A stretch of 64,000 bases of DNA from Clostridia bacterium (GTDB lineage Bacteria; Bacillota; Clostridia; UMGS1883). The translations under genes were made by a program, and so were the position numbers. Location of the stretch: assembly GCA_017411435.1 (NCBI GenBank), contig JAFQQD010000041.1:94-64093 (forward strand), written 5' to 3'. The notes below the pieces were generated by a model. That model did no database searches. It was not told the origin of the DNA and saw only the letters and a list, made by a program, of their open reading frames with translations. This document shows positions 29,355-64,000 of this stretch, in pieces (positions within the stretch are counted from its first letter, which is position 1; every line of letters starts with the position of its first letter).

Positions 29355-29365
29355 CACCACACACA

Positions 29366-29403
29366 AAAGGCACTCACAATTGTGAGTGCCTTTCTCTTTA
29401 TTT
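29366..29403 (+). terminator. Terminator after the LRR gene
   Basis: aaaggcactcacaattgtgagtgccttt perfect palindrome followed by a T-rich tract. Confidence 0.65.
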
Positions 29404-29405
29404 CT

Positions 29406-30341
29406 TTACTTTACATCTTCTACCTTGAACTTAAGATATGTCTTATATTCCTCAAAAGGTTTAAGTACAACATACTCGTTATTCTTTCTGATGTTTTCGC
29501 CGCCGCGGTTAGTTGTTCTCGGTTCAAGACCTACTACATACTCACTCTCGCCCATCATTTTCCAGATAAGGAAATTGGGAAGAGTTTTAGTCTTATATGT
29601 AATGCTTGCGAAGATTTTTTCGTTTTTGATACCAACGGTAACTTCGTCTTCGCTTTCAAACGGAACCGCGATACATTCTTCCTGTTTTTTGTGAATGGGA
29701 GCTGAAAGCTTTGCTATATCGTCAGGAACATTTGTCATAACTGCGTTTTCGTTAACGAGCGGATAACCGAAGTTACAATGATAGCAAAGTGCGATTTCGT
29801 CATCTTCAAAACCTTCGTTGACTATTGTGTCTTCGAGAGTGAATTCGTCAGAGAAGAGTTTAGTTTTTATAGTTCTCTTAAGCAGAAGGTTTTCGCCAAA
29901 AACTGCACATTCGCGAACCTGACCTGAAACCTCGATAACATAGTCATCGCCTACCCAGTCGGCAAAGATACTTACTTTTTCGGCAGGGGTATTGGCAATT
30001 CTGCCGTGCTGTCCCTGGTCGAGATATGGTTTGCCGATATTTTTAAGTCCACAAGTCGTTACAAGACCGCCGAAAAATCCGCGGAGGAAGTTTTTATCGG
30101 TCTTGTCATAATATTCGGGAGCGGTTATTCCTGTTCTTGAAATCCAACTGATTGCTTCGCCCTTATAGAAAGCCTGTGCGATGTCCATACATCTGTCGGG
30201 AAGAACTGTAAAAGATATTTTGCCTGTATTGATTTCAATAGCACGAACGCCCTTCATTTTGCCGTCATTGAATGTAAAGTCACGCACTCCGCCGATTTGC
30301 GAAACATCGCCAACGCGCGATAAAAGTTCTTTTTTATTCAT
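29406..30341 (-). CDS. DUF4432 / aldose-1-epimerase-like (galactose-mutarotase fold) family protein
   Basis: 311 aa beta-sandwich-type sequence. Family assignment is from memory of the DUF4432 architecture and is moderate only. Confidence 0.4.
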   Translation of the reverse strand: MNKKELLSRVGDVSQIGGVRDFTFNDGKMKGVRAIEINTGKISFTVLPDRCMDIAQAFYKGEAISWISRTGITAPEYYDKTDKNFLRGFFGGLVTTCGLKNIGKPYLDQGQHGRIANTPAEKVSIFADWVGDDYVIEVSGQVRECAVFGENLLLKRTIKTKLFSDEFTLEDTIVNEGFEDDEIALCYHCNFGYPLVNENAVMTNVPDDIAKLSAPIHKKQEECIAVPFESEDEVTVGIKNEKIFASITYKTKTLPNFLIWKMMGESEYVVGLEPRTTNRGGENIRKNNEYVVLKPFEEYKTYLKFKVEDVK

Positions 30342-38500: not shown

Positions 38501-39734
38501 TGTTACCGGGGGTAATTGTCTGAATATCACCGCCGCCCTTCATACGGATACCGTAGTCGCCGATTTCCTGAATTGTACAAGCCTCAACAAGAGTATTTTT
38601 TGAATCCTCTATAAATACTGAGTGCTGACCGATATTCTGAATGGTAGCGTTACGGATTGTGATATGGTCGGAATTTTTAATGTGGAATGCGTAATTTGAA
38701 AGACTGTCGTATACATTTATTCCGTCAAATGTAATGTAGGATGCACCTTCAAATTTAACATAAGTTTTTGAGTGTGTGCTGAGTGTAAGCTTATCCGTTG
38801 TCTTAAGCTTGTAAGGCGGATACCAGTAAAGCTTCTTGGTATTTGCATCAATGAAGAATTCACCCGGTGAGTCAATTTCTTCAAGAAGATTATCTACATA
38901 CCATCTGTGACCGGGCTTTACCCCGTAAGAGGTTCCTCGTGCGAGAACGATTGTCTTTTTCTCAGTATTGACACTGTCAAGCGGCACATGGTCCATATTG
39001 TATTCACTGCCGATATAGCCGTGAACTATTGCCTGGTCTGCCTTTTCCCATCTTTCAGGGCGGAGGTTGTTATACTTCCATTCGCCTTTCTTCTTTACAG
39101 AAGCAGTGGTAGGGGTTGCATCACCGGCTTCTACTACTGTAGTAATAGGCTGGAATCCGATATTGGGCCATCTTGCAAGGTCCTGTTTTTTATCATTAAG
39201 ATAAATAGTAACAGGTGTTGCATTATAGCGTGTATCAGCAATTCTTGAGCCATAGTTAAGTGCAGAAAAGTCAATTTTATACTCCGAAAGGTCAAGTTCA
39301 CCGACCTTACTCTGTGCCTCGGCAGGAATCCTTGTAAGTACTGCCTTATCAGTGACAGGTTTGAATTCTGCAAGGTTAAGAGTAACCGCGTTGGTCATTC
39401 TTACTTCACCGTCACCTGCTGCGCGGTATATTACAGGATATTTTTCATTACCTGAGTCTTCTTGTGTGAAAGTGAGTGTCAGTTCCTGCGGATAAATACC
39501 TGCGTGGACAATGACCTCAGCATGTTTTTTTCTGTGGTCTCTGGAGCGCAGAAAAGTCTGTGCTGCCTCAATTGTCTTAAATGGTTTTGCTTCGCTGCCG
39601 TCACCTGCAAATTTTGCATTGGCGTCAACATGAACTATAATCTTGTCCTCTTCAGCAGCCATTGCTGCAAAAGGAAGCAAAGAGAATACCATGCACAAAG
39701 CAAGAAGCATTGCTGTAATTCTAACTTTTCTCAT
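35571..39734 (-). CDS. Large secreted beta-helix/Fn3/Cu-amine-oxidase-N1-like protein (paralogue 2 of 3)
   Basis: 1387 aa with the same architecture as 31327..35469. N- and C-terminal ~150 aa are near-identical among the three paralogues. The termini are ~80% identical at the nucleotide level. Confidence 0.75.
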   Translation of the reverse strand: MRKVRITAMLLALCMVFSLLPFAAMAAEEDKIIVHVDANAKFAGDGSEAKPFKTIEAAQTFLRSRDHRKKHAEVIVHAGIYPQELTLTFTQEDSGNEKYPVIYRAAGDGEVRMTNAVTLNLAEFKPVTDKAVLTRIPAEAQSKVGELDLSEYKIDFSALNYGSRIADTRYNATPVTIYLNDKKQDLARWPNIGFQPITTVVEAGDATPTTASVKKKGEWKYNNLRPERWEKADQAIVHGYIGSEYNMDHVPLDSVNTEKKTIVLARGTSYGVKPGHRWYVDNLLEEIDSPGEFFIDANTKKLYWYPPYKLKTTDKLTLSTHSKTYVKFEGASYITFDGINVYDSLSNYAFHIKNSDHITIRNATIQNIGQHSVFIEDSKNTLVEACTIQEIGDYGIRMKGGGDIQTITPGNNRVANCHFYRWATRNNFWGNHAVNIGRSSYNTTIGDIVENNLIHGQPSGQGLHFGGLENQIRYNEIASIAHDAADCGVIYAGRTLNEWGNEISYNYIHDYGAIFEARYQVQAIYWDDWMSGQNAHHNIIVPGTKNRTAGNLFVGADSYYCENIVVNSDIGVRATDREKEIHSTAYNTTKDTHKANSPAILEKYPRIREYKEELDKNGMMLLCANNVFENNLSVDVNSNRFHDTHIKNGKFNNNQISDDYGVFVDAANHDYRLTSEAVKQFGFPDTVLNENNFSMDKIGVQPEIMKLEKPETPFRLLYPTNGQTNVIRNTAYIKWEAARYADMYEYVVATDPDLKNVVASGTTLYNLVELPDLQGNTVYYYKVWAKNVTRQMGNTWASEGVPYMFKTTATDVLETEMLKEEIKNIKALREKVAPLVGDALGQYKPEVLTAIDDKLSNAQRIANKTTGSQEEIQNSVADLQLFQEGITGYKRAGHENIKITDGTWLVNDTSISASKTGNTLKLESFSDGWAYLNEPTPGYTVKHFRMKINYNGWTGISIKQSNPESKIYDTGLKSYFLVIKPEQIEFQKKNPAAATTGVITTYPNQYIREDEWVDVEFGSVDVPGGVNIFLKVNGNIVLNEYDTETPCFGDGYFVIRPGGEGAVVELQEASSVPTEEFVYSGASSMDQAKTIYNLESKNAVKTGVWTNSDDKTADGSTIWTSVDPTASVTYTVTDTEVPYKTYYYHEPIAGGDPNATISMVAYSPTDGGKTNVVRKIDFSQGEKGWVYLGTYECASHSKTGDIVFTIEGSGQGTLVAPVVATVRADKELLEFNRTFYDYSENLLLMKIDSQKAYKVQDELAIPDTAPYIENGRTMVPLRFVSEAFGAQVDWNAETQTATITNGSNVVAFTLGNKNYTANGEVRESETEAKLVNGRTMIPLRATAEALGKKVMWYGDARLIFIADNFGFAESDTAKLQNAAKGFDKGFN

Positions 39735-45636: not shown

Positions 45637-48600
45637 TTATTCATCCCAGCTGTTGCTGTTGTAAACGATCATATTGGGAATATTTGCAAATCGAGAGTTG
45701 AACATAACTCTTGAACAGTCTGTACCGAAGTCTTCGTATGTCTTAACATCGTTGATTGATCCTGTCTTAACAACAATATCACCATCTACGAAGTTAACAA
45801 CTACAATCTTGGAAACTGACCAAACCTCTTCCTTATATCTTGTGTCGAAGTCTGCAGGATTTTCAGGATAGCCATTCTGGATTACATCCCAACCGGTAAG
45901 TTTAACAACGCCTTCACGAATCTTGAGGGGGTAACACTGGAAGAAACGGAATGAACCTGATGAGAAGCTTCTACCTGAAGCAAGGTTCATCGCTGTACCA
46001 CCACCGTAAGCAAAGGGATTCTTGTTGTATTGGGGATGAGTTTCGTCAGCTTCAACCCAACGGTCAACACCTGGGATGACACCGGGAGTCTGGGGCTCGC
46101 CTGTACCATCAACACCGTTTTCGTCAAATACTACACGAACATGTTCAACAATACCGTTTTCGTCCATAGCAACACGAACGATATCACCTACTTCAATATC
46201 TTCTCTGTCAAAGGGAACCTTAACCCAACCGAGGTTTGTGTTAGAGGAGTTTACTCTTACATCAGTTTCTGCTTCTGTATCGAATACAGCGTCGTCCTTG
46301 ATGTAGAGGTTAGCATCTGAAATAGAGCCCTGCCTATACTTCTTTGCCTTATAGATTGTACCAAGAGTATCATCGGGGAATCTGCCGCCGCCGATTTCTG
46401 TGATGATGTATACATCGGGTACACCGTAGCTTGTATCCATACCTGTTTCACCTGAAGGAAGGTCAACAACAGCATATTTTACTGACATACCGCCTTCGAT
46501 ATCTGTGTATGCTCTCAAAACATGATACTGACCTGCATCATCAGAAGTGTGTGTGGGAAGGTTCTTGATTGTACCTGCAGAGAATGCGTTTTCATCGTCT
46601 ACTCTTCTCTTTGTGCTGTCAACCATAATAATCTTTGATGCAGCAGGAGCAGCAACATAACCGCCGAATGAGTTTGAATTCTGTCTGAGGTAACCCTTTT
46701 CACTGTCACCGCTGTCGTTTGAATGAACAAGGTGAAGCTTACCTGTAATCTTTGTGTTTGCATCAAGAATGGGAAGCTCGATATAGTTGATTGCATCTTC
46801 ATCGTTTACTGTGTAACGGAACATACCATCAATCTTGTTTGACTCTGCATTGTATTCTGCCGAATATGCTTCAACAAATTCCTTTGCAGTCATCTTTGAT
46901 TCCACGCCGTCGTGGTTACTTACTCGAAGTGTTTCAGCAAGCTCATAGAGAGTATGTGCACCGCCCATTGTGTATGTCTGGATAGCATACCTTCTGTTTG
47001 TGGGTGAACCGGACAAGCTGCCGATTTCAAGGATGTAACCAATCTGAAGACCTGCCTTTTCCTGAGGAACGGCAAATGCTACACGACCGTAAGAGTTCAG
47101 ATAAAGAGTAAATGACTTGTTAAGTGCAAAATCTTCTCTCAGGCTGTAGTCCATAAATGCCTGTGTAACCTCGAATTCATTTTCAGTGTCAGAGATGTAG
47201 GTCTTTCCTTTATCTTCTGTGATTGAGTTAATTGTGAATTCTGAAATTGCACGGTTTGTTACATAGAATGTAAATATGTTACCGCGGCGGATAACATCAA
47301 GAACAGAGTTCTTCTGAATCATTGTGAAGTCTGCCTTGTTACCGTCTGCATCGTAGATATTAACGATGTACTTGGGGTCTTCGAAATCAAGCTCGATGAT
47401 ATCATCTTCGCTTGCATATGTGCCAGAACGAAGTATGTTGTAAATCTTTGTGTTGTCGCTGTCAACATTACCAACAACCCATGTTTCGAACTCATCGATT
47501 ACAACGATTTTCTTGTAAAGGTCATCTCTTGTTTCGATTACATAAATCTTACCGTAAGCGTTATTTGTAACAAAGTCGTTGAAGAAAGATTCGTTGTAAG
47601 AATCAAGTACTGCGCCATTGTAAATTACATAAGCATTTGCGTAGTTAACCTTCTTAGCTATCTTGTTAACCTTGTAGTTAAGTGTATCGCCGGTTGCGCT
47701 TGTAAGTGTTTCAATATCGATTTCTGTAACCTCATCGCGACCGTTAAGCTCTACATATACTGCAACACCTGAATCGTCTGACTTGTAGTTTGTGTACCAG
47801 CAAGTAACATCACGACCGATGAACTTTGAAAACTCCTTGCCCTCTTCCACTCTGATGAGAGTATCTGCTACAACGATTTTTGCACCTTCGTATGTGCTTT
47901 CGCCAACGAGTGTTGTGTAACCGCTGTCTGTCATAAGACCATCAATTTTATTAAGTCCGAGGATTTCCGAAGCGAATGTGCGGTTTTCGTCATAAGCAAA
48001 GCTGATGTCGCCGTTTTCGCCGTAAGATGTTTCTACAAGCATCTGTGCATCCATAGTATTCTTAAGGATAACTGCGATTGCACCACGCTTACAGATTTGT
48101 CCTGCGTTAGAGCCTTTAGTAAGGTTAAGGCGCTGAGCAAACTTGTTATAACCTACGGGGTAACCGCCGTTAGCCTCAGCAACAGCCTTATAACCAAGCA
48201 TAACCATAAATGTCTTTATAACCTGGTCAGTTGTTACTTCGCCATCGGGGTCGAAGGTTGTTTCAGATGTACCGTTCATGATACCAAGGTCACGGATGTA
48301 GTTGATTGCATCGTATGCCCAGTGAGATTCAGAAACATCTTCAAAATCTTTTGTTTCAACAACCTCCACAACGGGAGCGTCACTGCCTGAACCTGTGTCA
48401 ACGATAAGCTGGTCTTCGTTTGAATCATCGCCGAAGAATGAATCGCTCCAGATAGATTCATCGAAGAAGCCGCCTTCAGAATCGCTGCCAGCTCCGCTGC
48501 CGTTTGCGTATGAGAGGATGTTATTAATCAACTGTGCAAATTCCGCACGCGTCATATTCTTCTCAAGGTTTGAGTTGCCCTTGTCATCTCCAACCATAAT

Positions 48601-48747
48601 ACCAAGGCTGGAGAGGAAATCAAAAGCACGCTGTTCCTGAGGTGTATATACTACTGTTTCTTCTTCATCAGCAGCATTTACAACAGAGAATGTGAAACAC
48701 GATGCGATTATGCAAAGGGTAAGTATTAAGCTTAAAATTCTTTTCAT
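45637..48747 (-). CDS. Large secreted S-layer-homology (SLH) domain protein
   Basis: Signal peptide. N-terminal SLH motifs 'FDFLSSLGIMVGDDKGN...MTRAEFAQLI' and 'AYDAINYIRDLGIMNGTSETTFDPDGEVTTDQ'. ~800 aa beta-rich remainder of unknown function. Confidence 0.7.
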   Translation of the reverse strand: MKRILSLILTLCIIASCFTFSVVNAADEEETVVYTPQEQRAFDFLSSLGIMVGDDKGNSNLEKNMTRAEFAQLINNILSYANGSGAGSDSEGGFFDESIWSDSFFGDDSNEDQLIVDTGSGSDAPVVEVVETKDFEDVSESHWAYDAINYIRDLGIMNGTSETTFDPDGEVTTDQVIKTFMVMLGYKAVAEANGGYPVGYNKFAQRLNLTKGSNAGQICKRGAIAVILKNTMDAQMLVETSYGENGDISFAYDENRTFASEILGLNKIDGLMTDSGYTTLVGESTYEGAKIVVADTLIRVEEGKEFSKFIGRDVTCWYTNYKSDDSGVAVYVELNGRDEVTEIDIETLTSATGDTLNYKVNKIAKKVNYANAYVIYNGAVLDSYNESFFNDFVTNNAYGKIYVIETRDDLYKKIVVIDEFETWVVGNVDSDNTKIYNILRSGTYASEDDIIELDFEDPKYIVNIYDADGNKADFTMIQKNSVLDVIRRGNIFTFYVTNRAISEFTINSITEDKGKTYISDTENEFEVTQAFMDYSLREDFALNKSFTLYLNSYGRVAFAVPQEKAGLQIGYILEIGSLSGSPTNRRYAIQTYTMGGAHTLYELAETLRVSNHDGVESKMTAKEFVEAYSAEYNAESNKIDGMFRYTVNDEDAINYIELPILDANTKITGKLHLVHSNDSGDSEKGYLRQNSNSFGGYVAAPAASKIIMVDSTKRRVDDENAFSAGTIKNLPTHTSDDAGQYHVLRAYTDIEGGMSVKYAVVDLPSGETGMDTSYGVPDVYIITEIGGGRFPDDTLGTIYKAKKYRQGSISDANLYIKDDAVFDTEAETDVRVNSSNTNLGWVKVPFDREDIEVGDIVRVAMDENGIVEHVRVVFDENGVDGTGEPQTPGVIPGVDRWVEADETHPQYNKNPFAYGGGTAMNLASGRSFSSGSFRFFQCYPLKIREGVVKLTGWDVIQNGYPENPADFDTRYKEEVWSVSKIVVVNFVDGDIVVKTGSINDVKTYEDFGTDCSRVMFNSRFANIPNMIVYNSNSWDE

Positions 48748-48777: not shown

Positions 48778-50559
48778 TTACTTAGACAGAATACCATATA
48801 TGATTTTTGCGCCTTCTGCTCTTGAGATATTTGCCTTGGGCCTGAAGCTTCCGTCTTCGTAACCGCCAACAATACCCTGTTCGTACAATGCATTTACTGC
48901 ATCAGCAGCGTAAGCACTGATATCAGCCTTATCTGCGAAGTTAGCTTCACCTACAGCTGAGTAATTGAGAGCTCTGCAAATCATAACTGCGAAATCTTCT
49001 CTTGTTACATTGTTTCCTATACCAAATGCTGTTTCACTAACACCATTGATGATGCCTGCTTTTGAAAGTGCTGCGATATAAGGAGCATACCATGCCGACG
49101 GGTCAACATCGGCAAATGCAGTGCTCTCATAAGAAGGCTCGATACCAACTGTAAGGCAGATGATTTTCGCAGCCTGCTCGCGAGTCAATGTGCCAGCGGG
49201 GTTGAAGCGCTGATTACCTACACCATTGATGATACCCTTGTCAGCAAGAGAGATGATTGCTGTCTTTGCCCAGTCATATCCGCCAAGGTCAATGAATGCA
49301 CTTACGGGAGTAGTTGTACCGCCGACGCCAACTGAAACGCTGCCTGTGTTACCACTGGTTCCTGTGTCTGTACCGGGGTTATTTACAGTATAATCTTTCT
49401 TTGCAGATGCAATAATCTTTGCTTCAAGATTTTCTGCTGTAATAGTAGCTCTTTCGTTGTAAATGTCGTTATTTACAGCTGCTATGTTTGCATGGTCAAG
49501 ATATTCTGTCTTGAGAGTATCATTGCCTACAGATACAACATCAAGACCTGCTGCTGCAAGGTTGTCTGCCGTAAGAACTTTTTCAACAATACCATAACCG
49601 CTGTCCTTGTTTCTTCTGATACCCTGAACGAGGATTTCCTTTGCAAATGCTTCACAAAGGTCCTGCTCGTCATCAGCGTCATTATTAAAGATACCATTAA
49701 GAGCAGCGCTTACGCCTGCTGTTGTAAGCTTTGTTGTGTAGATAGTATTGAGAGTGCCTTCTGTTTCAATGTAATCAGTAAGGCCAAGGATTTCATCATA
49801 TACAATTGCAGTTCCGTTAAGAGAAGCCGCAATATCCTGATTGAAGCCTTCAATAGCTATGCAAAGTCTGAGAGCTGCATCAAAAGCAGAATATTCATCA
49901 AGGTAATCTGCTTCATTACCTGCTGTGTATCCTGCAAAGAGGTCTGCTGCAAGCTTGCTTCTGAGAAGTGCTGCAAGCTCTTCCTTGTCAAGCTCTGCAA
50001 AAACTGCGCCGTCTACTGCGAACTCTTCCTTATTTTCTTCTATAAGAGCGCCTGCCGCAGCATCGTCTGCTGCTTCAACTACTTCCTTTGCAGCTGCAAG
50101 CTTTGTATCTTCTGCAGCAAGCCAGTATGAAGCTGTTGCAACCTCGCCGTCATATGCTGCGCCGCCTGCGTAGATGTCAAATGTGTATGAATCATCTTCG
50201 CTGTCTGCGATAGCAGTATCCATATTGAGTGTGAACACAAATTCGAAGTAACCGTTTGCTTTTGTAACTGCAGCGTTCTGATACTGAACTCTTGCAGCGA
50301 TGTTTGCTTCGATATCTTCCATATCATTGTTATCATCATTATTTACATCTTTATTTGTTACAAGAAGTGTTACACCCTCCCCTGCTGCAGCGCCGGGAGC
50401 TGTACCGGAAATTTTAAGTGTGCCGGCAACACTGTCAATTACTGTTATGTCAACAGTAAGTGCCTCTGGAGTTGTCTCAGCAGCAGCAAAAACTGCTGCT
50501 GAGAACATATAAACCACGCAGAGGGCTAATGTAAGAATTCTTTTCTTAGTATTCATCAA
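48778..50559 (-). CDS. Secreted protein with three C-terminal SLH domains
   Basis: Signal peptide 'MMNTKKRILTLALCVVYMFSAAVFAAAE'. C-terminal 'DWAKTAIISLADKGIINGV...LTREQAAKII', 'WYAPYIAALSKAGIINGV...VTREDFAVMI' and 'AYAADAVNALYEQGIVGGY...ISRAEGAKII'. The start overlaps the stop of the upstream beta-helix gene (ATGA). Confidence 0.75.
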   Translation of the reverse strand: MMNTKKRILTLALCVVYMFSAAVFAAAETTPEALTVDITVIDSVAGTLKISGTAPGAAAGEGVTLLVTNKDVNNDDNNDMEDIEANIAARVQYQNAAVTKANGYFEFVFTLNMDTAIADSEDDSYTFDIYAGGAAYDGEVATASYWLAAEDTKLAAAKEVVEAADDAAAGALIEENKEEFAVDGAVFAELDKEELAALLRSKLAADLFAGYTAGNEADYLDEYSAFDAALRLCIAIEGFNQDIAASLNGTAIVYDEILGLTDYIETEGTLNTIYTTKLTTAGVSAALNGIFNNDADDEQDLCEAFAKEILVQGIRRNKDSGYGIVEKVLTADNLAAAGLDVVSVGNDTLKTEYLDHANIAAVNNDIYNERATITAENLEAKIIASAKKDYTVNNPGTDTGTSGNTGSVSVGVGGTTTPVSAFIDLGGYDWAKTAIISLADKGIINGVGNQRFNPAGTLTREQAAKIICLTVGIEPSYESTAFADVDPSAWYAPYIAALSKAGIINGVSETAFGIGNNVTREDFAVMICRALNYSAVGEANFADKADISAYAADAVNALYEQGIVGGYEDGSFRPKANISRAEGAKIIYGILSK

Positions 50560-54827: not shown

Positions 54828-54875
54828 CACCCATCGGCACCGCATGGGTGCCGATAAGGTTTTTATTTATTTTTT
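54828..54875 (+). other. Orphan terminator-like hairpin (atcggcacc/ggtgccgat) followed by a T-run on the plus strand, at the left edge of repeat element R1
   Basis: 9-bp perfect stem followed by ggtttttatttattttttg. No plus-strand gene lies upstream. Confidence 0.4.
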
Positions 54876-55260
54876 GAGATTCTTCGCTTACGCTCAGAAT
54901 GACAAAGGGGCGCGCTCAGAACGACAAGATTGTGTCATTCTGAATGAGCATCCTCTTCCCCGTCATTCTGAAGGAGCATCCTCTTTCCTGTCATTCTGAA
55001 GGAGCGTCCTCTTTCCTGTCATTCTGAAGGAGCAAAGCGACTGAAGAATCTCTTTTTGGGGATTCTTCGCTTTGAGATTCTTCGCTTACGCTCAGAATGA
55101 CAAAGGGGCACGCTCAGAATGACAAAGGGGCACGCTCAGAATGACAAAGGGGCACGCTCAGAATGACAAGATTGTGTCATTCTGAAGGAGCAAATCGAGT
55201 GAAGAATCTCTTTTTTGAGATTTTTCGCTGTGCCTTTTCCTTTACACAAGGGAGGCTTTG
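54876..55260. repeat. Composite tandem/inverted repeat element R1 (22-nt and 30-nt units with a GTCATTCTGA/TCAGAATGAC core)
   Basis: 3 copies of ~30-nt 'gtcattctgaaggagc(a/g)tcctctt(c/t)cc'. Central gaagaatctc-N-gagattcttc hairpin. 3-4 copies of 22-nt 'cgctcagaatgacaaaggggca' in inverse orientation. Same family as R2 and R3. Confidence 0.85.
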
Positions 55261-55275
55261 AGGGGGATTTTTCGA

Positions 55276-58200
55276 TTACTCGCCGATTACTGTGTCTACT
55301 GCGAGTGAAAATTCTTTTTCTGTCATATCTTCGAGTGAATCCCATACGAAGCATTTTGCAGTGTATGTTTCTTCACTGTCACATACGAAGTCAGCAACTG
55401 AAACTGTGCATGACTGACCTGTTGTAAGTGTGTAAGCACCACCCTGTACTGCAACCATCTGACCTTTACTGTTGTAGATGGCAACTGTTGCAGTAAATAC
55501 GCAGGGAGCAGAATCCGTGTTATTCTTGATAACTGCAGAAATTGTAACTGTTCCTTCAATTTCTCCGCCGCCAACAACACCGAATGATTCGATTTCTGTC
55601 GGAGGATAGATTGTCATAAAGGGAATGTTTGCAAGCTCCTTACCGCTTTCAAGAGTTACATCGTCAAAATTGAGTGTGTATACACTCTTGTAAGCAAGGT
55701 CTTCGAAAGTAACTACGATTTCGTTAGCTGATGCAGCTTCGATTGAGTAACCTTCTACTTCGTTACCATCGCTGTCAAGAAGCTTAATCTTTGCAACCTC
55801 GGAAGAAAGAATTTCTTCTTCAAGAGTTACTGTAACTTCGCCTGTAAGGTCAACATCAACATCTGCATCGATTTCTGCTGCGCAGATTTCGTAAGCGCGT
55901 GTCATTACGATATCAACGATTTCAGCGTATGAGTCTGAAGCAGTTGATGAAGTAGGTTCAAACATAAGTAATGCTGCACCGTTGTTGCCGTGGTCGATAA
56001 TATTAAGCATCTTGTCGCCGTTTACGAAGAAGTTAGCATTTCCGTCCTTCATAGCGAGCTTAAGCTCAATACCTGTTGTACCATTAAGACCTGAATATGA
56101 AGTATCGGTCATGGTTGTTGTGTTGTAAGCGTAGTTTGTAGAGCCGTCACCGTCTGTATCGCCGAGGTCTGTCGGGATGGGATGTGAATATGCTCTCAAT
56201 GATGATGAAGCAACAGCCATCTGAATACCAATACCACGATACCATGTGTGGTCGAAGCCGTAGTTTGCGTTAGGCGCGAATGTATGACCGATACCGATAT
56301 TGGAGGTTGAAGTACCTGTGATATTCTTAAATGTTGCCTTAAGTGTGTAATCCTTGTGAGAGTAAACACTGTTGGGCTGTGCAAGAACTGAACCGATTGC
56401 CTTACTTGCGTCGCTGTCTTCCCCGACACCGTGAGTAATCATTGTTCTTGCCTTGTTCTGTCCTGAGTACTGAATCTTAAGGCCAAGACCGTCCTCGTGC
56501 TGAGTTACTGTGCCGTTACTCTTGTAAACATAAGTATCTTTGCCTGATGCGGTTGTAGGACCAACGAAGCCCTCGTCAAGAAGGTCAACCTTGAAGTTGA
56601 TTGTCTTTTCATCGTCTGCCCAGATTTCAGTTTCGCAATCAACATTGTAGATTGTGAGCGCATAGCCGATGAAGGGCTGAAGTCCGCCTTCGGGAATAAC
56701 CTTGTAGGTGTAACGAGTTGAGTTGCCTGCATCCATATATTCGCTTGCAGCTGCTTCAAATGTTACGGGAACAGTTGAATTACCCTGCTTAAGAGTAGCA
56801 TCGAGGTCTGTGATTTCTGCATTGAATTCAAGAGTGATGAAATCAAGGTCCGCGTTCCAGTCAACGAATACTTCGTCAAGAGCGATAGGCTCAACCTTTG
56901 TTGCAAATGCAACAGGGTTGATTGCAGCAAGTCTGTCTTCTGCGGCAACCTTTACATCTGTGAAAACGATTTCGTAATCTGATTCGTATGCAAGGTTTGC
57001 GTATTCGATTGTAGCTGTAAGCTTGTCAGCTGAAAGAGAAACTGTGTAGTCTTCAGTATTTACGGGGTCACCGTTTTCATCGTTAAGAACGATGCCGCCG
57101 ATTGTAGCTTCGTCAATTTCAGTATCGAATGTGATATCGAGTGAACCCTCGATATCAAGGCCTGTTGCAGAATCAAGCTCTGCATCAACTATCTGATATG
57201 CGTAGGGCGCGCCTTCAACTTCGCCTAACACAAATGCCTTTTTCCAGATAAGGAGAGCCTTTGTATCGCCTACATTAGCGATGTTTTCAAGCTTGATTTC
57301 GTAAGGGATTCCTTCTTCAATAGCACTTCCGTCTGCGGGAGCGATTACGATAACCTCAGGGCCTGCGACTGCTCCTGCAGTTGATTCAATTTCAACGCCG
57401 TTCTTTGAAAGAGTTGCGTCATATTCAGAAATCGGTTCTGAGAATGTAACTTCTACTCCGGCTGTGTCAACATCCCATGATGCGATAAGCTCGGGGCTTT
57501 GCGGAGGAAGGTCCTTTGTTCTGAAATTAAGCGCACCCTTGATTGATGCTTTTCCTGCGCCGTCTATCTTTACACCGTCAATGTTGATTGTGTAGTTTGT
57601 TTCGTATTCAAGGCGCTCAACAAAAGTGATTGTTGCTACTGTGTCGCCCTCTGAAAGAGAAACTGTGTAGTTTTCTGTGGGGATTGCTTCGCCGCCCTCG
57701 GGGATGATTTTGATGTTATCCTTTGTAGTAGGGTCAATAGCGCTGCTGAATGTAAGGTTAAGTGTATCTCTTACTTCAACATCTGTATCCTTGTCAAGCT
57801 CAACACTGAAGATTTCGCGAACCTGTGTTACCTGGAAATCGTAAATCTGACATTTTGCAGTTGTGCCTGATGTTGTACCTGAGGGGTTCATAGAGAGGAA
57901 GGGATAACCTGCGTTAACCTCTACCTCACCGTCCATAAGCTTTTCGCCGTTAAGGAATGCTCTTACAACGCCTGCCTTTGATGAAACCTTGAATTCAAAA
58001 CCATTTTCAAAATCGAGGTTGGGAGCACTTGTACGGGCAAAATAAGCAGCTCTGCTTGCTGAATCGCTTCTGTAGTTTGAATTAGCCATGAGATAGTAAG
58101 CAGCGTCATGGCTTGTTGTTTCCATTGCTGCGTAGTCGTATGTCTTGATACCTACGAATTTTGCACCGGTAGCACTTTCACTGTGGATATTCTGTGTGTC

Positions 58201-58908
58201 GCTTGCTATACCGAAGTTAACTGTAGCACGAGTAGTGTTTGAAGACTTGATAGTTGCCTTAACTGTGTAATCTGTTTCAGTCCAGTTTGCTGAACCTTCA
58301 GGTAAAGATTTGTTGGGAAGAATATGTTCTTCAGTAGTGTCGTTACCTACACGAGCACCTACTACTGACCAGTAGCTCATATTGTTACCTGCTGCCCATG
58401 ATTCAACCATCATACCGCCTGTCACATTATCGCGAACCCAGGTATTGGAGTTTCCCCACTTGTAGGGAACGATGTTAACAAGGTCCGCATCATCTGCAAG
58501 TTCGTAAACTGCGAAAGTCAAATCGCGGTGTTCAAGTGTTGATGAACCCTCGGCAGCGGCAACATCTTCAAACGAGATTGTGTACTCGTCCTCAAGAACG
58601 ATACCGTCGTCAAGAGTTACCTTGTAAGTGTAGCGAGATGATACACCGTCTGCCTGAACATTAGCGTTTGCGTCTGCCTTGGCAAGGGTAAATTCATCTT
58701 CTGCCAAATAAGTTTCGCCATGCATAATAGCGATGGCTGAGTTTTCGAGGTCAATCGCCTGATTGAAATCGAGTGTAATGAAATCTGCGTCTGCGTCCCA
58801 GCTTACAAGCTCGAGAGGGTCAGCAGCGATTACGCTGAGTCCTGACAAAGCGGAAACAAGCATGCAAACGCATAAAATTATTGATTGAATTTTCAAATAT
58901 TTTGCCAT
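55276..58908 (-). CDS. Large secreted protein of unknown function with an internally duplicated ~200-aa domain (paralogue A)
   Basis: GAGGA RBS. Signal peptide 'MAKYLKIQSIILCVCMLVSALSGLSVIAADP'. Two copies of a domain carrying 'NFGIASDTQN...YRSDSASRAAYFARTSAPN' / 'NIGIGHTFAPNANYGFDH'. The first ~400 aa are >80% identical to the 59634..62195 product. Confidence 0.7.
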   Translation of the reverse strand: MAKYLKIQSIILCVCMLVSALSGLSVIAADPLELVSWDADADFITLDFNQAIDLENSAIAIMHGETYLAEDEFTLAKADANANVQADGVSSRYTYKVTLDDGIVLEDEYTISFEDVAAAEGSSTLEHRDLTFAVYELADDADLVNIVPYKWGNSNTWVRDNVTGGMMVESWAAGNNMSYWSVVGARVGNDTTEEHILPNKSLPEGSANWTETDYTVKATIKSSNTTRATVNFGIASDTQNIHSESATGAKFVGIKTYDYAAMETTSHDAAYYLMANSNYRSDSASRAAYFARTSAPNLDFENGFEFKVSSKAGVVRAFLNGEKLMDGEVEVNAGYPFLSMNPSGTTSGTTAKCQIYDFQVTQVREIFSVELDKDTDVEVRDTLNLTFSSAIDPTTKDNIKIIPEGGEAIPTENYTVSLSEGDTVATITFVERLEYETNYTINIDGVKIDGAGKASIKGALNFRTKDLPPQSPELIASWDVDTAGVEVTFSEPISEYDATLSKNGVEIESTAGAVAGPEVIVIAPADGSAIEEGIPYEIKLENIANVGDTKALLIWKKAFVLGEVEGAPYAYQIVDAELDSATGLDIEGSLDITFDTEIDEATIGGIVLNDENGDPVNTEDYTVSLSADKLTATIEYANLAYESDYEIVFTDVKVAAEDRLAAINPVAFATKVEPIALDEVFVDWNADLDFITLEFNAEITDLDATLKQGNSTVPVTFEAAASEYMDAGNSTRYTYKVIPEGGLQPFIGYALTIYNVDCETEIWADDEKTINFKVDLLDEGFVGPTTASGKDTYVYKSNGTVTQHEDGLGLKIQYSGQNKARTMITHGVGEDSDASKAIGSVLAQPNSVYSHKDYTLKATFKNITGTSTSNIGIGHTFAPNANYGFDHTWYRGIGIQMAVASSSLRAYSHPIPTDLGDTDGDGSTNYAYNTTTMTDTSYSGLNGTTGIELKLAMKDGNANFFVNGDKMLNIIDHGNNGAALLMFEPTSSTASDSYAEIVDIVMTRAYEICAAEIDADVDVDLTGEVTVTLEEEILSSEVAKIKLLDSDGNEVEGYSIEAASANEIVVTFEDLAYKSVYTLNFDDVTLESGKELANIPFMTIYPPTEIESFGVVGGGEIEGTVTISAVIKNNTDSAPCVFTATVAIYNSKGQMVAVQGGAYTLTTGQSCTVSVADFVCDSEETYTAKCFVWDSLEDMTEKEFSLAVDTVIGE

Positions 58909-59004
58909 ATTTTATTCCTCATTAATCAAATTTCGATGTGGTTACTGTTTTGTAACGAGCATGAAGCCCGAAACAAATGCAAAATGCATAATGCATAATG
59001 CAGA

Positions 59005-59421
59005 ATTTCCTTTCCTGTCATTCTGAAGGAGTGCAACGACTGAAGAATCTCCGAGATTCTTCGCTTACGCTCAGAATGACAACTTCTTCCCCGTCATTCT
59101 GAAGGAGCTTCCTCTTTTCCTGTCATTCTGAAGGAGCAAAGCGACTGAAGAATCTCTTTTGGGGATTCTTCGCTTCGAGATTCTTCGCTTACGCTCAGAA
59201 TGACAAAGGGGTGCGCGCTCAGAATGACAAAGGGGTGTGCGCTCAGAATGACAAAGGGGGCAAAATGACAAACCTTTCCAAAGCCCTCCTTGTGCAAAGG
59301 AGGGTGGCACGCGTAAGCGTGACGGGAGGATTGTTTTGTCAGTAATTTGCTTTGTTTGCAATCCCTCCGAGTTGCTTCGCAACCCACCTCCCTTTACACA
59401 AGGGAGGCTTCAGGGGAAGTC
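59005..59421. repeat. Composite tandem/inverted repeat element R2 (same family as R1 and R3)
   Basis: Units 'cctgtcattctgaaggagc', the gaagaatctc...gagattcttc hairpin (twice) and 3x 'gcgctcagaatgacaaagggg[tg]'. Additional long palindrome at 59285-59400 (gggaggattg...caatccctcc; ccctccttgtgcaaaggaggg). Confidence 0.85.
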
Positions 59422-59590
59422 TTATGGGTGTCGTCTGATTTCGCATTTCGCATTTCCTTACGCGTGTGCGCGCGTAAAAAAAAATAAAATAAGTAATATA
59501 TGCTGTTTATATCAACTAAAAAAGGGCATAGCTATCGCGTTGAATTCGACATAAAAGTCTAAAAAGCGTAGCCTAATAAAGCCTAATATA

Positions 59591-59618
59591 GGGAGGGGAC
59601 TTTTAAGTACCCCTCCCT
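59591..59618 (-). terminator. GC-rich hairpin immediately 3' of the 59634..62195 gene (probable terminator)
   Basis: gggagggg-acttttaagt-acccctccc with an 8-bp G/C stem, 15 nt after the stop codon. The U-tract is weak. Confidence 0.45.
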
Positions 59619-59633
59619 GAAAGGCGTAACTAA

Positions 59634-62195
59634 TTATTCAACTTCGATTGCGGGGAACCAGGCTTTGAGTGCGTCTGCGCTATCCCAAACGAAGATTTTT
59701 GCGTATGTACCGCCGTTTGTTTCAACATTTGCAAACTCAAGGTCTGTCTCACCTGTGTATGCAGCCTCAACCTCAGAGATGATAAGGTTTGTCATTGCGC
59801 CTGCTGCATTGTAGAATGCGCATGCTGCGAAGATTGCCTTATCGTTGAGTGTGTTGTTTGTAAGAGTTGTTAAAATTGAAACAGTTTCGTTACCTGCGAT
59901 TGCACCTTCAGCAACTGAAGCTTCGCCAATAGTAAAGTACTCGCCTGTTACATCAAGGTGTGTTGCACGGGTTGCAACGAAATCAGCAAGTGTAACTGAC
60001 ATACCCTGTGTAGAGTCGATTGCAGTCATGTTTACACAAATCTGTGCTGAACCTGCGTAATCCTGCTGAAGTGCCATGTCACTAACCTTAGAACCGTTGA
60101 TGTATGCACGAGCGTGCTGGTTCTTTGTTGAAAGCTTAAGAGTTGTACCTGCTTCGCCAAGGTCTACATCGAAGTAGCTACCCTGAGAAGCGTATTCCTG
60201 ACGATAGAGGTTACCGTTTGCAGATGAGTATGCACCTGTTGTGTCATACACCTTGAGGTTACCGCGATCCTGCTGTTCGTCGCCGGGAACAACTTCAGAA
60301 AGGTCCTGAACCTGCATACCTACACCTCTGAAGTATGAGTGGTCAACACCATAGCTTGCATTTCTTGAATATGCAGTAGAAAGCGCATATGAACCGTTCT
60401 TAACGTTTTCAGTATCCTTAAATGTTACCTTAACTGTGTAATCCTTTTCTGTGTAGGGAGAAGTCTTGCTCATTGAAGATTTTGATGAGTCTGTATCTTC
60501 ACCTACTGCGCGGTAAACAAACATTCTGCCTGTTGAAGACTTAGCTTCTGTTGTCAGTACAAGGTCGTCACCGTTAACATTTGAATATGTGGGAGTTGTG
60601 CTCTTGTTAAGGTATGTCTGTACAGAGCTTTCTGTGTCGTGTGTAAGACCTTCTGCGATAACTTCTACCTTGAAGGTCTTGGACCAGTTTGCAAGAACAA
60701 CATTACCTTCAGCGTCCTTAACATTAGCGATTGTTACTGTGTAGGGGATATCGCGTACGATACCGCCTGAAACGGGCTGAACCTTCCATGTGTAACGGGG
60801 AGCTTCTTCGATATCTTCATTTGTTGCAGTTGCACCTGCAGTAGCAACTTCCACACCTTTAGATGTTGTTACCATATTCTCGTCGTTAGCACAGCTTACA
60901 GTTACAGGAATCATTGTACCTGCCTGTGTAAGAGTTGCGTCAAGAGAAGCGATTTCTTCTGCGAAATCTACTGTGAAGAAGTCAAGGTCAGCATCCCAGT
61001 CAAGGATTTCTACGGGGAGTTCGCCTTCATCGGGTTCGGGAGGAACATAGCCCTCGGGAGCAACAACTGCAACTTCTTCGAATGTTGACTGTGTTACCTG
61101 GAAATCATAAAGCTGAACCTTTGCAGTTGTATCTGTTGTTTCACTTGATACATATACAGAAGCGAAGGGATAACCTGCAAGAACTTCTACTTCACCGTCC
61201 ATAAGCTTTGCGCCGTCCATGAATGCTCTTACAACGCCGTCCTTTGATGAAACCTTGAATTCAAAACCTGCTTCAGGATTGTAGTTGGGAGCACTTGTAC
61301 GCGCAAAGTAAGCAGCTCTGCTTGCTGAATCGCTTCTGTAGTTTGAATTAGCCATGAGATAGTAATCAGCGTCATGACTTGTTGTAGTCATTGCTGCGTA
61401 GTCGTATGTCTTGATACCCGTGAATTTTGCACCGGTAGCAGTTTCACTGTGCATATTCTGTGTGTCGCTTGCTATACCGAAGTTAACTGTACCACGAAGC
61501 ATGTTTGAAACCTTGATAGTTGCCTTTACAGTGTAATCTGTTTCAGTCCAGTTTGCCGAACCTGCAGGTAAACTTTTGTTGGGAAGTATATGCTCCTCAG
61601 TAGTGTCGTTACCTACACGGGCACCTACTACTGACCAGTAGCTCATGTTGTTACCACCATGATTGAATGCTTCAATCATCATACCGCCTGTTTCTTCATC
61701 GCGAACCCAAGTGTTGGAGTTGCCCCACTGGTAGGGAACTATGTCAACAAGGTCTGCATCAGTAGCGAGCTGCGCAACTGAGAATACAAGAGCGCTCTGT
61801 TCAAGTGTTGAAGCACCGTCAGAAGACTTAACATCCCAGAAAGAAACTGTGTACTCGTCGTCGAGAACGATATCGTCTGTAAGAGTCATCTTGTAGGTGT
61901 AGCGAGATGAAACACCATCTGCCTGAACAGAAGAGTTTGCATCTGCCTTAGCAATTGTGTAGTCCACACCTGCCTCCAAATATTCATCGCCGTGTTTAAC
62001 AACGAACTGTGAATTTTCGAGGTCAATCGCCTGATTGAAGTCGAGTGTGATGAAATCTGCGTCAGCGTCGTAGCTAACGAGTTCAAAGGGATCAGCTGCA
62101 AATACTGTCAAACCTGAAAGCATTGTTACAGCCATGCAAAGAGCTACCAAAAGAGAAAGGATTTTGCTAGTCTTTTTCATAATTTTTACCTCCAA
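59634..62195 (-). CDS. Large secreted protein of unknown function (paralogue B of 55276..58908)
   Basis: Signal peptide 'MKKTSKILSLLVALCMAVTMLSGLTVFAADP'. Shares the N-terminal ~400 aa and the duplicated domain (repeated 'SNYRSDSASRAAYFARTSAPN') with paralogue A. Related C-terminal 'KIFVWDS' beta-sandwich. Confidence 0.7.
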   Translation of the reverse strand: MEVKIMKKTSKILSLLVALCMAVTMLSGLTVFAADPFELVSYDADADFITLDFNQAIDLENSQFVVKHGDEYLEAGVDYTIAKADANSSVQADGVSSRYTYKMTLTDDIVLDDEYTVSFWDVKSSDGASTLEQSALVFSVAQLATDADLVDIVPYQWGNSNTWVRDEETGGMMIEAFNHGGNNMSYWSVVGARVGNDTTEEHILPNKSLPAGSANWTETDYTVKATIKVSNMLRGTVNFGIASDTQNMHSETATGAKFTGIKTYDYAAMTTTSHDADYYLMANSNYRSDSASRAAYFARTSAPNYNPEAGFEFKVSSKDGVVRAFMDGAKLMDGEVEVLAGYPFASVYVSSETTDTTAKVQLYDFQVTQSTFEEVAVVAPEGYVPPEPDEGELPVEILDWDADLDFFTVDFAEEIASLDATLTQAGTMIPVTVSCANDENMVTTSKGVEVATAGATATNEDIEEAPRYTWKVQPVSGGIVRDIPYTVTIANVKDAEGNVVLANWSKTFKVEVIAEGLTHDTESSVQTYLNKSTTPTYSNVNGDDLVLTTEAKSSTGRMFVYRAVGEDTDSSKSSMSKTSPYTEKDYTVKVTFKDTENVKNGSYALSTAYSRNASYGVDHSYFRGVGMQVQDLSEVVPGDEQQDRGNLKVYDTTGAYSSANGNLYRQEYASQGSYFDVDLGEAGTTLKLSTKNQHARAYINGSKVSDMALQQDYAGSAQICVNMTAIDSTQGMSVTLADFVATRATHLDVTGEYFTIGEASVAEGAIAGNETVSILTTLTNNTLNDKAIFAACAFYNAAGAMTNLIISEVEAAYTGETDLEFANVETNGGTYAKIFVWDSADALKAWFPAIEVE

Positions 62196-62237: not shown

Positions 62238-63710
62238 TTATTTGCTGTTTCTAGCCTTTTCTTCAAGGAATGCATCAACCTGACGCTGTGCTTCAGCGAT
62301 AACTTTTTCAAGTCCTCTGTCGTACATACCCTGAATATAATCGTCATAACCGTCTTCGATTGACTTAGCACCTACAAAGTAAGCAGTACCCTTTTCCTTA
62401 CGATAAGCTGTAAGGGCGGTGATTTCTGCTTCAACCTTTGAATTGTCAAATGAGAAGCCAAGAACGGGAGATACCTGATCGAGTTCAACTGCCTCGTTAT
62501 TAAGAGCTTCTGTCTGTTCCCAAACATCTGCGTCAGCACCTTCTCTTACGAGAGCGTTGAACTGGTTACCGAACTTCCAGTCAGCTTCAGGAGCGTACTT
62601 GCTGTCTTCCTTCTTTACAACAAAGCCGTCTTCGTTAAGGTCGTAGTGTACGCCTTCAATACCGAAGCAGATAAGGTTATAAAGCTCCTTGTTTGTGTTG
62701 ATAAGTTCGATGAACTTCATTGCCTCTTCCTTATGCTTGGAATTCTTACCGATACCAATCATTGTAGACTGACAAGCGCCTGCCTTGATGTAGGGCTTTG
62801 CAATGTTCCTAACAGCAACAACATCTTTGCCGAGAACATTCTTGATGTTTACTTCAACACCGGGCTTGTATGTCTGGATATCCATAGCATACTTACCTGC
62901 GAGGTAATCTGAGTTATCGTCTGTTGCAGAGAGTACATCCTTACGGATATAGCCCTTCTCATACCAACTGTAACGAATTCTCATACCTTCGAGGAATGAT
63001 TCGTGGTTGTCTGTGAATACAACATCGATACCTGTTTCGCCGTCAAAAGAGTCCTTATCGATAGCTATACCGATGGGAACGATTTCTTCAAATGTACCAT
63101 CAACCTTGAAGTAAGCGTTTCTGTTTCTCCAGGGCCAGATACCATCTTCATTTTCGTAAACTGCCTTCATGAAGGGTTCAAGCTGTGAGTATTCTGTGAT
63201 AGAATCTACATCAAGATTGTACTTTTCAACAAGTTCTACGGGAATGAAGGGGCAAGACTGTGCAGCAACAATCTGCTGATTGGGTACTGCGTAGATTTTT
63301 CCGTCAACCTTTGCTGCATCCCAGTAGAACTGAGGTGTAGCTTCTACAAGATCAGGAGTGAGCTTCAAAAGCTCATCAAGGGGTTCAAGACCACCAAGCT
63401 TCGCAGCTTTTGAGTAAACATTGATGTAACCTGTGAAGCAAAGGTCGAAATCGTCCTTTGAAGCCATCTTAAGTTCCATCTTCTGGCTAAAAGCACTCTG
63501 GTCAAGGAATTTGAGGTCGATTCTTGCACCAATTTCCTTTTCAACGATCTTGTTAGCGGCTTCCATAACCAAAGCGGTATCTTCCTGAGCATCGCCAGGT
63601 ACATACCATACAAGAGTAGGAATGTCGCCGTCTGCCTCTTTCTTGCCACAGCCTACAAAGCATGCTGCCACGAGTGTAAGAGCAAGAATTAAAGCAAGAA
63701 CTTTTTTCAT
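62238..63710 (-). CDS. ABC-transporter extracellular solute-binding lipoprotein (family 1, carbohydrate-type)
   Basis: Lipobox 'LVAACFVGCG'. ~490 aa SBP_bac_1-like sequence with aromatic-rich binding-cleft segments. Confidence 0.7.
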   Translation of the reverse strand: MKKVLALILALTLVAACFVGCGKKEADGDIPTLVWYVPGDAQEDTALVMEAANKIVEKEIGARIDLKFLDQSAFSQKMELKMASKDDFDLCFTGYINVYSKAAKLGGLEPLDELLKLTPDLVEATPQFYWDAAKVDGKIYAVPNQQIVAAQSCPFIPVELVEKYNLDVDSITEYSQLEPFMKAVYENEDGIWPWRNRNAYFKVDGTFEEIVPIGIAIDKDSFDGETGIDVVFTDNHESFLEGMRIRYSWYEKGYIRKDVLSATDDNSDYLAGKYAMDIQTYKPGVEVNIKNVLGKDVVAVRNIAKPYIKAGACQSTMIGIGKNSKHKEEAMKFIELINTNKELYNLICFGIEGVHYDLNEDGFVVKKEDSKYAPEADWKFGNQFNALVREGADADVWEQTEALNNEAVELDQVSPVLGFSFDNSKVEAEITALTAYRKEKGTAYFVGAKSIEDGYDDYIQGMYDRGLEKVIAEAQRQVDAFLEEKARNSK

Positions 63711-63770: not shown

Positions 63771-64000
63771 TTGGGATTCTTCGCTGCGTTGTTTGGGGAC
63801 AGGTCAATTTTTGTTGCACCTGCGGATTACAAAAATGTCCCACGTCCCCCTATGGGGAGCGTCGCTCAGAATGACAGTGCTGTGTCATCCTGAAGGAGCA
63901 AAGCGACTGAAGAATCTCCTCTGGGATTCTTCGCTGCGCTCAGAATGGCAAAGGGGTGAGCGCTCAGAATGACAAAGGGGTGTGCGCTCAGAATGACAAA
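63771..64000. repeat. Composite repeat element R3 (truncated by the window end; same family as R1 and R2)
   Basis: gggattcttcgctgcg, gaagaatctcctctgggattcttcgc hairpin and 'gcgctcagaatgacaaaggggtg' units. Upstream stem gggaca..atttttgt/acaaaaat..gtccc. Confidence 0.8.

Follow-up and report, generated by a model that had tools for sequence, protein, structure and literature searches.

Secreted proteins with a rare concanavalin A-like module as candidate glycan-capture components of a polysaccharide-utilization locus in a Clostridia bacterium

A 64,000-nucleotide stretch from Clostridia bacterium (assembly GCA_017411435.1, contig JAFQQD010000041.1; hereafter the window) contains two adjacent genes, designated A and B, that encode secreted proteins with two copies each of a ~235-amino-acid (aa) module, termed X. 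This module represents a new, divergent sequence family inside the well-known concanavalin A (ConA)-like fold superfamily, and lies outside any defined family. With a probability of roughly 55%, A and B are non-catalytic glycan-capture proteins of this lineage-restricted family that serve an adjacent ATP-binding cassette (ABC) importer and several beta-helix enzymes, with the first X module (X1) homogenized and varied by gene conversion. In such a system, the X modules, two per protein and carried on immunoglobulin (Ig)-like spacers, would attach to the target polysaccharide on the outside of the cell and keep it available to the large beta-helix enzymes encoded nearby. A DUF3502-containing solute-binding protein (SBP) and two permeases would then import the oligosaccharides that result. 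Gene conversion would homogenize X1 between A and B, and the same segment would vary between strains.

For the X module, searches of Pfam, NCBIfam, and the sequences of the Protein Data Bank (PDB; phmmer and profile) found nothing significant. The PDB profile search gave no match at E ≤ 10 and did not recover GH16 or DUF1080 structures. When 1.84 billion representative proteins were searched exhaustively with an HMMER profile, 12 relatives were identified in total, all 12 of which have the same domain plan. The 10 relatives that were looked up belong to clusters of one to three members from ENA, Logan, or NCBI metagenome assemblies, and the two that have names are both called hypothetical. The rarity of the family is judged from this exhaustive search. 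A word-indexed homolog search (with X1 and with an alignment of 23 X copies) gave no matches even though the collection searched contains the 12 relatives, including the near-identical P0001 and P0013, and is uninformative. When an alignment of the module that precedes X (the N module, described below) was scanned against the representative genomes of 185,579 species, the family was found in three, all metagenome-assembled genomes (MAGs) of uncultured Clostridia or Oscillospiraceae, including one from goat cecum. The sample names of other contigs (XIEF21… and TONG22…) indicate metagenome studies, which we take to be of ruminant gut. Within the window, sequence comparison found X in none of the other proteins. 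A preliminary description of this DNA, made from the sequence alone, had been unable to place the repeated domain in a family and had proposed a database search with a profile model; the results above bear out its judgment.

The structure of X was modeled with AlphaFold on the second copy of B (B X2). With the 23-copy alignment as input, the model is an all-beta jelly-roll of about 15 strands, with a predicted local distance difference test score (pLDDT) of 80.2 and a predicted template-modeling (TM) score of 0.84, whereas a four-sequence input gave a pLDDT of 50 and was unusable. A Foldseek search of the PDB with this model returned 313 matches at E ≤ 1e-3. The best 50 of these 313 are all ConA-like lectin/glucanase jelly-rolls, and include GH16 enzymes, YesU of B. 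subtilis, the L-type lectins Emp46/47 and VIP36, botulinum neurotoxin (BoNT) receptor-binding domains, and alginate lyase. The best E-value (6e-7) was obtained with GH16 (1mac, 7kr6, and 5nbo; TM 0.43–0.51). At TM scores of 0.4–0.5 and ~10% sequence identity, these matches support a relationship at the superfamily level only. A library of viral structures showed the same superfamily-level similarity, and a phage origin was rejected on the ground that the similarity does not go beyond that level. Structures of carbohydrate-binding modules (CBMs) are absent among the best 50 of the 313 fold matches, and CBM models are absent among the Pfam matches of the full proteins and the 23 isolated X copies. 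The preliminary guess of a lectin or CBM-like beta-sandwich, for which structure prediction and a fold search had been suggested, is supported by the confident jelly-roll model and by the ConA-like type of all of the best 50 matches.

Among Pfam families, the sole recurrent weak match of X is PF06439 (DUF1080/3-keto-disaccharide hydrolase), also a jelly-roll, which was matched by 2 of the 23 copies (best E 8e-4). Full-length A and B do not match this family at E ≤ 1, and X was not assigned to it. The strand layout of PF06439 is presumably similar to that of X, with a hydrophobic-polar strand, '..NG..v.D', and a C-terminal 'DF.vt' strand. For GH16, there was no Pfam match at E ≤ 1 with the full proteins or at E ≤ 10 with the 23 isolated copies, and a regular-expression search found the catalytic motif E-[ILV]-D-[IVAF]-[VILMF]?-E, or any ExDx(x)E, in 0 of 23 copies. 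Membership of X in GH16 was rejected on this missing motif, and the clean mapping to a glycoside hydrolase (GH) or CBM family with conserved catalytic residues that the preliminary description had allowed for did not emerge. Across the 23 copies, no acidic residue is strictly invariant. The invariant residues are T82, K182, K198, G210, and T237, while K84 and K186 are nearly invariant and Y81 is conserved. The conserved positions map to the core strands (DYTVK, ELKLSxK, NGxKxxD, and DFxVTR) or are adjacent to them, and positions ~100–180 are hypervariable with insertions and deletions. Moreover, X occurs one to three times per protein, with Ig-like spacers between copies and no recognized catalytic domain. 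Such conservation and repetition are typical of binding modules. X is probably non-catalytic and probably binds carbohydrate.

Several points weigh against a role in glycan capture. The top structural matches are GH16 enzymes as often as lectins. The fold does not exclude catalysis, because a DUF1080 member, the endo-glucanase/xanthanase of Thermogutta that was described as 'similar to GH16', is a proven endo-glucanase (PMC10881899). In addition, the invariant or nearly invariant lysines and the conserved tyrosine could in principle form a lyase-type site. The proteins also lack an anchor, such that their presumed retention at the cell surface is unexplained. Finally, the strain-level evidence presented below derives from metagenomes assembled from short reads, in which paralogous stretches can be joined wrongly. 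The points on fold and residues also favor an alternative in which X is the catalytic founder of a new GH or polysaccharide lyase family of the jelly-roll type and A and B are multi-catalytic enzymes. The alginate lyase among the fold matches, the link (albeit weak) to a Pfam family with proven enzymes, and the presence of the uronate-catabolism gene UxuA in the locus are all compatible with this alternative. However, it appears unlikely given the absence of ExDx(x)E and of any strictly invariant carboxylate, the confinement of conservation to core strands with hypervariable loops, the low TM scores and sequence identity of the enzyme matches, and the one to three repeats with Ig-like spacers that are usual for binding modules. 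Furthermore, three to four large beta-helix proteins in the locus are already candidates for the enzymatic role.

The domain plans of the two proteins differ in their middle parts. Protein B consists of a signal peptide, N1, X1, an acidic/proline-rich linker, N2, X2, and a C-terminal Ig-like module. Protein A consists of a signal peptide, N1, X1, Big_5, an N-like module, a Big_5-like module, N2, X2, a second Big_5-like module, and a C-terminal Ig-like module. The repeat unit is thus a cassette of a ~100-aa N module plus X, and not X alone. The N module has the motif DADxDFITLDFNQ and weak Ig-like matches to CopC and Kre9. Within each protein, X1 and X2 are 22–26% identical, and phmmer recovers this internal duplication with significance (E 1e-5 to 1e-8). 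The preliminary description was right that each protein has two copies of the domain, which proved to be ~235 aa long; its signature strings, reported for both copies, occur once per protein, in X1. The Big_5 assignment in A is well above the Pfam gathering cut-off (58.6 versus 23.6 bits) and involves three stretches, the best of which is aa 372–464. The C-terminal modules of A and B are homologous beta-sandwiches of ~90–115 aa containing …FVWDS…, with weak Ig-like matches to CARDB, FxLYD, and the C-terminus of the 'cell surface protein' 8c8k (E 0.02). A function of this module as an anchor was considered and rejected, given that its matches are weakly Ig-like and that it has no similarity to other proteins of the window.

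The two open reading frames of the preliminary description are present, in tandem and co-directional as it had stated, on the minus strand. Their products of 848 and 1210 aa are large and not 'giant' as it had called them. The reading frame given there for B (59634..62195, 853 aa) exists, but translation likely starts at the ATG at 62180, which has a GGAGG ribosome-binding site 8 nt upstream, and less likely at the TTG at 62195. The 848-aa product is identical to P0013 (MBQ3022951.1, 'hypothetical protein [Clostridia bacterium]'), a protein from a MAG. Direct reading of the sequences revealed N-terminal hydrophobic Sec-type signal peptides in A and B that end in VFA↓AD and VIA↓AD, respectively, with AxA cleavage sites, and no cysteine in a lipobox context. 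An LPxTG motif, a hydrophobic tail, and SLH, choline-binding, CWB, and Cu_amine_oxidN1 domains were looked for in both proteins and none was found.

The genomic context of A and B is conserved among related loci. In the locus L001, the gene order is permease, permease, SBP (DUF3502), B-type gene, A-type gene, beta-helix protein(s), and SLH protein. This order recurs in L002, L003, L006, L007, L009, and L010, either as a whole or in the part covered by the contig, and one of the beta-helix proteins in it carries Cu_amine_oxidN1. The synteny with importer and beta-helix genes is found in every related locus that is long enough to show it, in at least three species. Where both genes are visible, the first gene after the SBP gene is always B-type (MKKTSKILSLL… / …AKIFIWD…FPAI), and the second is A-type (MAKYLKIQS… / …TYTAKCFVWDSL). 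Judged from these comparisons, the two genes form an old and conserved pair within a Gram-positive polysaccharide-utilization locus, and each type has its own last X module and C-terminus. In the window, the short gap between the SBP gene and B (57 nt) suggests co-transcription.

The similarity between A and B is concentrated in the N-terminal parts, particularly in X1. The two proteins are 76% identical over the first 364 aa (BLASTP). Identity is ~53% across the signal-peptide region (first 30 aa) and peaks at 83–97% around A aa 181–300; the earlier estimate of >80% over the first ~400 aa including the signal peptide was too high. For X1, the identity between A and B is 80–81% in the window, compared with 32% in the L001 pair and 47% in the L003 pair. 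By contrast, the last X domains of A and B share 29% identity and group according to gene type (54% between A and the A-type protein P0003). The identity between A and P0003 falls to 17–40% exactly where that between A and B is 85–92%, and synonymous differences between A and B decrease to 0–8% over A aa 211–330. Alignment of the shared 5′ parts had been proposed in the preliminary description as a means of finding gene conversion, and mosaic tracts were indeed found in X1. The comparison involved four genes, namely A and B in the window and in L006, a strain variant of the whole locus. Fixed paralog-specific differences number 1–5 per 75 nt in A nt 526–975 and 8–36 in the bins outside. Inside this tract, the fixed differences give way to sites where one A allele matches both B genes. 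In A nt 826–900, the paralogs within the genome (95% identity in the window) are closer than the orthologs between strains (83–88%). Taken together, these sequence patterns indicate that X1 of A and B was homogenized by gene conversion in this lineage. The putative conversion tracts lie within the genes, and the intergenic repeat arrays described below do not delimit them.

A more recent event may be recorded in B. Compared with the L006 allele, 15 of 2547 nt differ, and 13 of these 15 differences lie within B nt 725–888. At 11 of these 13 sites, B has the base of A, and in 200,000 permutations no clustering as tight was obtained. Among database relatives, X1 classes also cross gene types (65% and 64% identity), with the partner genes absent from the same contigs; none of the contigs with P0004, P0012, P0010, or P0003 contains both partners in complete form, and the signs of X1 exchange come from one lineage.

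Between strains, the window and L006 have 181 differences over the 8.9-kb locus, 166 of which are in A and 13 in X1 of B. Those in A are nearly all located at nt ~450–1500 (window ~57409–58459), which correspond to X1 and the first Big_5. The divergence across this part of A is ~15%, while the window and L006 are otherwise ~99.9% identical. In A nt 400–1149, the differing codons comprise 41 non-synonymous and 24 synonymous ones. The segment of X1 with signs of homogenization thus also appears to be the variable part between strains. A technical explanation would be that the recent patch in B and part of the strain mosaic are assembly artifacts, which would concern the recent tract and neither the family nor the older homogenization. 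Short-read assemblers would have jumped between the paralogous X1 segments, which are 80–90% identical. All of the sequences are metagenome assemblies or MAGs, and the patch falls in a region in which A and B have identical stretches of up to 57 nt, a length that can confuse k-mer graphs. Nevertheless, this explanation is doubtful for several reasons. The independent assemblies L004, L005, and L006 agree on the alternative B allele, except for one additional difference in L006. The hotspot in A extends into the first Big_5 (A nt 1150–1500), which has no paralogous copy in B, and therefore an external donor allele is implied for this hotspot. Also, the contrast between 80% identity of X1 here and 32–47% in the pairs of other species is independent of any single assembly.

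The preliminary description likened the gene pair to variable adhesin families. In this scenario, A and B would be variable surface adhesins or antigens that attach to the host, phages, or other cells, recombination would diversify their X1 cassette, and the proximity of the transporter genes would be incidental. The status of X1 as a hotspot of recombination and polymorphism, the numbers of non-synonymous and synonymous codon differences given above, the X1 classes that cross gene types, and the presence of ConA-like/LamG modules in phage tail and tropism proteins are all in line with it. Nonetheless, the analogy fared poorly, since LPxTG, SLH, choline-binding, or other anchors are lacking, the importer/beta-helix synteny is conserved across species, and the spacing of the SBP gene and B suggests a common transcript. 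As for recombination in an exposed module, the mosaic and the hotspot in X1 come from metagenome assemblies and show no link to adhesion. Overall, an adhesin role seems decidedly improbable. A more far-reaching scenario is that the N+X cassette is an exchangeable specificity module, with tandem B- and A-type genes swapping and importing X1 variants through gene conversion and thereby re-tuning the recognition of a glycan (or of a phage or host ligand). In this scenario, X would be the founding member of a CBM family or of a new family of jelly-roll enzymes that act on an acidic amino-sugar polysaccharide, in a lineage-specific system driven by recombination. This scenario is speculative and quite unlikely.

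If A and B are glycan-capture proteins, as is favored here, comparable proteins exist in other gut bacteria. Sas6 of Ruminococcus bromii has CBM26 and CBM74 modules (bioRxiv 10.1101/2022.11.20.514607). Like Sas6, A and B are secreted, have no recognized catalytic domain, contain several beta-sandwich modules, and are found alongside degrading enzymes and importers. The modules of Sas6 are reportedly also separated by Ig-like spacers. The SusE/F-type proteins of Bacteroidota loci, which are surface glycan-binding proteins, provide a second comparable example. Unlike these proteins, X matches no CBM model, A and B have no dockerin, lipobox, or known attachment device, and their binding of glycans is deduced from fold and context. 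No described counterpart was found for the N+X cassette or for the pair of B-type and A-type genes. In terms of individual domains, GH16 (lichenases, laminarinases, and carrageenases) shares the beta-jelly-roll with X and provides the best structural match, but differs in the catalytic motif, which is missing in 23 of 23 X copies, in the lack of a Pfam match, and in the low TM scores and identity already noted. PF06439/DUF1080 falls into the same fold superfamily and gives the recurrent weak match. The L-type lectins and LamG-type proteins (Emp46/47, VIP36, the N-terminal part of the BoNT receptor-binding domain [Hc-N], and YesU/DUF1961) have the same fold and are non-catalytic sugar- or ligand-binding modules, but have no detectable sequence relationship to X. 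YesU is encoded in a pectin-utilization cluster.

If the proposed role is correct, X would be a new lectin-like or CBM-type family that is seemingly restricted to a few uncultured gut lineages of Clostridia/Oscillospiraceae, with members that are all hypothetical or unannotated and in some cases come from ruminant-associated samples. It would add a glycan-capture component to Gram-positive utilization loci, which are far less understood than the Sus-like systems of Bacteroidota, and would help to approach the substrate on which the beta-helix enzymes of the locus (~1,385 aa) act. An old gene pair in which a single binding module evolves locally in concert would be a tidy example of cassette exchange, and opens no long-standing question. 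The family would be a modest addition and not a new kind of system, unsurprising in principle and mainly relevant to specialists in carbohydrate-active enzymes and the gut microbiome.

Table 1. Positions of genes, modules, putative conversion tracts, and repeat arrays in the window.
Feature	Position	Strand	Remarks
Gene A (A-type X protein)	55276..58908	minus	Open reading frame; 1210 aa
A N1 Ig-like module	58525..58824	minus	aa 29–128; motif DADADFITLDFNQ
A X1	57805..58521	minus	aa 130–368; ConA-like jelly-roll, without annotation
A N2	about 56635–56865	minus	aa 682–758
A X2	55879..56601	minus	aa 770–1010; divergent, 22–26% identical to X1
A C-terminal ~115-aa beta-sandwich	55279..55623	minus	Contains TYTAKCFVWDSL; family alignment
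Homogenized tract in A (putative)	57934..58383	minus	A nt 526–975; matching B segment about 61197–61649
Gene B (B-type X protein)	59634..62180	minus	Open reading frame; 848 aa from ATG
B N1 Ig-like module	61791..62096	minus	aa 29–130
B X1	61068..61790	minus	aa 131–371 (848-aa numbering)
B N2	60681–61007	minus	about aa 392–500
B X2	59946..60680	minus	aa 501–745; modeled copy, pLDDT 80.2
B C-terminal module	59637–59945	minus	Homologous to that of A; …AKIFVWDS…FPAIEVE
Putative recent conversion patch in B	61293..61456	minus	B nt 725–888
Solute-binding lipoprotein gene (SBP_bac_1 + DUF3502)	62238..63710	minus	Ends 57 nt upstream of the B ATG
Right-handed beta-helix protein, 1390 aa	50556..54728	minus	Downstream of A; C-terminal Cu_amine_oxidN1; candidate glycanase or lyase
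Beta-helix paralogs (~1385 aa)	35571–39734, 31327–35469	minus	Secreted; C-terminal Cu_amine_oxidN1
Composite palindromic repeat array between B and A	59016..59260	.	22–24-nt and 28-nt units
Repeat array downstream of A	54856..55232	.	Same array type
Third repeat array, upstream of SBP gene	63863..64000	.	Runs off the window end

The three beta-helix paralogs (~1380–1390 aa), which are encoded downstream of A, are likely the depolymerases of the locus. The first of them has a weak match to the GH141 insertion domain and a single relative in the PDB, 9rx2, which is named a 'parallel beta-helix repeat protein' (E 3e-7). Directly downstream of this first gene are two genes for SLH-domain proteins of 1036 and 593 aa (45637–48747 and 48778–50559, respectively, both on the minus strand), and an SLH protein is encoded at the equivalent position in L001. 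These SLH proteins are candidates for tethering the anchor-less A and B to the cell wall. Genes further downstream encode NagB-like and NagA-like proteins, an AraC regulator, an esterase-like protein, UxuA, an SDR protein, a PIG-L deacetylase, and a DUF4432 protein. These catabolic genes may hint at a substrate that contains N-acetylglucosamine and glucuronate.

The intergenic repeat elements noted in the preliminary description are real, but do not precede each gene as it had stated. On the coding strand, the arrays are downstream of A and of B, and B is preceded directly by the SBP gene. The arrays are composed of tandem units of 22–24 nt (GTCATTCTGAGCG) and 28 nt (TCAGAATGAC), the units carrying GTCATTCTGA or its complement TCAGAATGAC, and a hairpin of GAAGAATCTC and GAGATTCTTC sits between the two types. 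The middle array is predicted to fold as RNA into long nested hairpins (-98.3 kcal/mol, z -4.7). Arrays are also found in the equivalent gaps of related loci, including those of other species (at 2569 in L001, at 5890 and 8239 in L002, and in the gaps of L004–L006). Searches for an Rfam family, a plasmid match, or a relevant paper found none for these arrays. They might be elements for mRNA processing or stability, terminators, or mobile elements similar to miniature inverted-repeat transposable elements (MITE) or repetitive extragenic palindromes (REP).

Two minor features were noted in the 725-nt spacer between B and A. Following the stop codon of B, a G+C-rich hairpin at 59597–59625 (minus strand; GGGAGGGG, an 11-nt loop, and CCCCTCCC) is followed by a weak T-rich stretch and may be a terminator between B and A. 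It was missed by the consensus scan because of its loop length; the promoter and terminator scans gave results not above shuffled expectation. The spacer also contains tandem 7-mers, which are GCATTAT-like at ~58975–59000 and GAAATGC at ~59440–59460. Elsewhere in the window, a gene at 27843–29354 (plus strand) encodes a BspA-type leucine-rich-repeat protein with Cu_amine_oxidN1. It may be a surface-protein gene that was acquired separately, because it is located in the bin with the lowest GC content (28001–30000; 0.36, compared with ~0.42 for the window).

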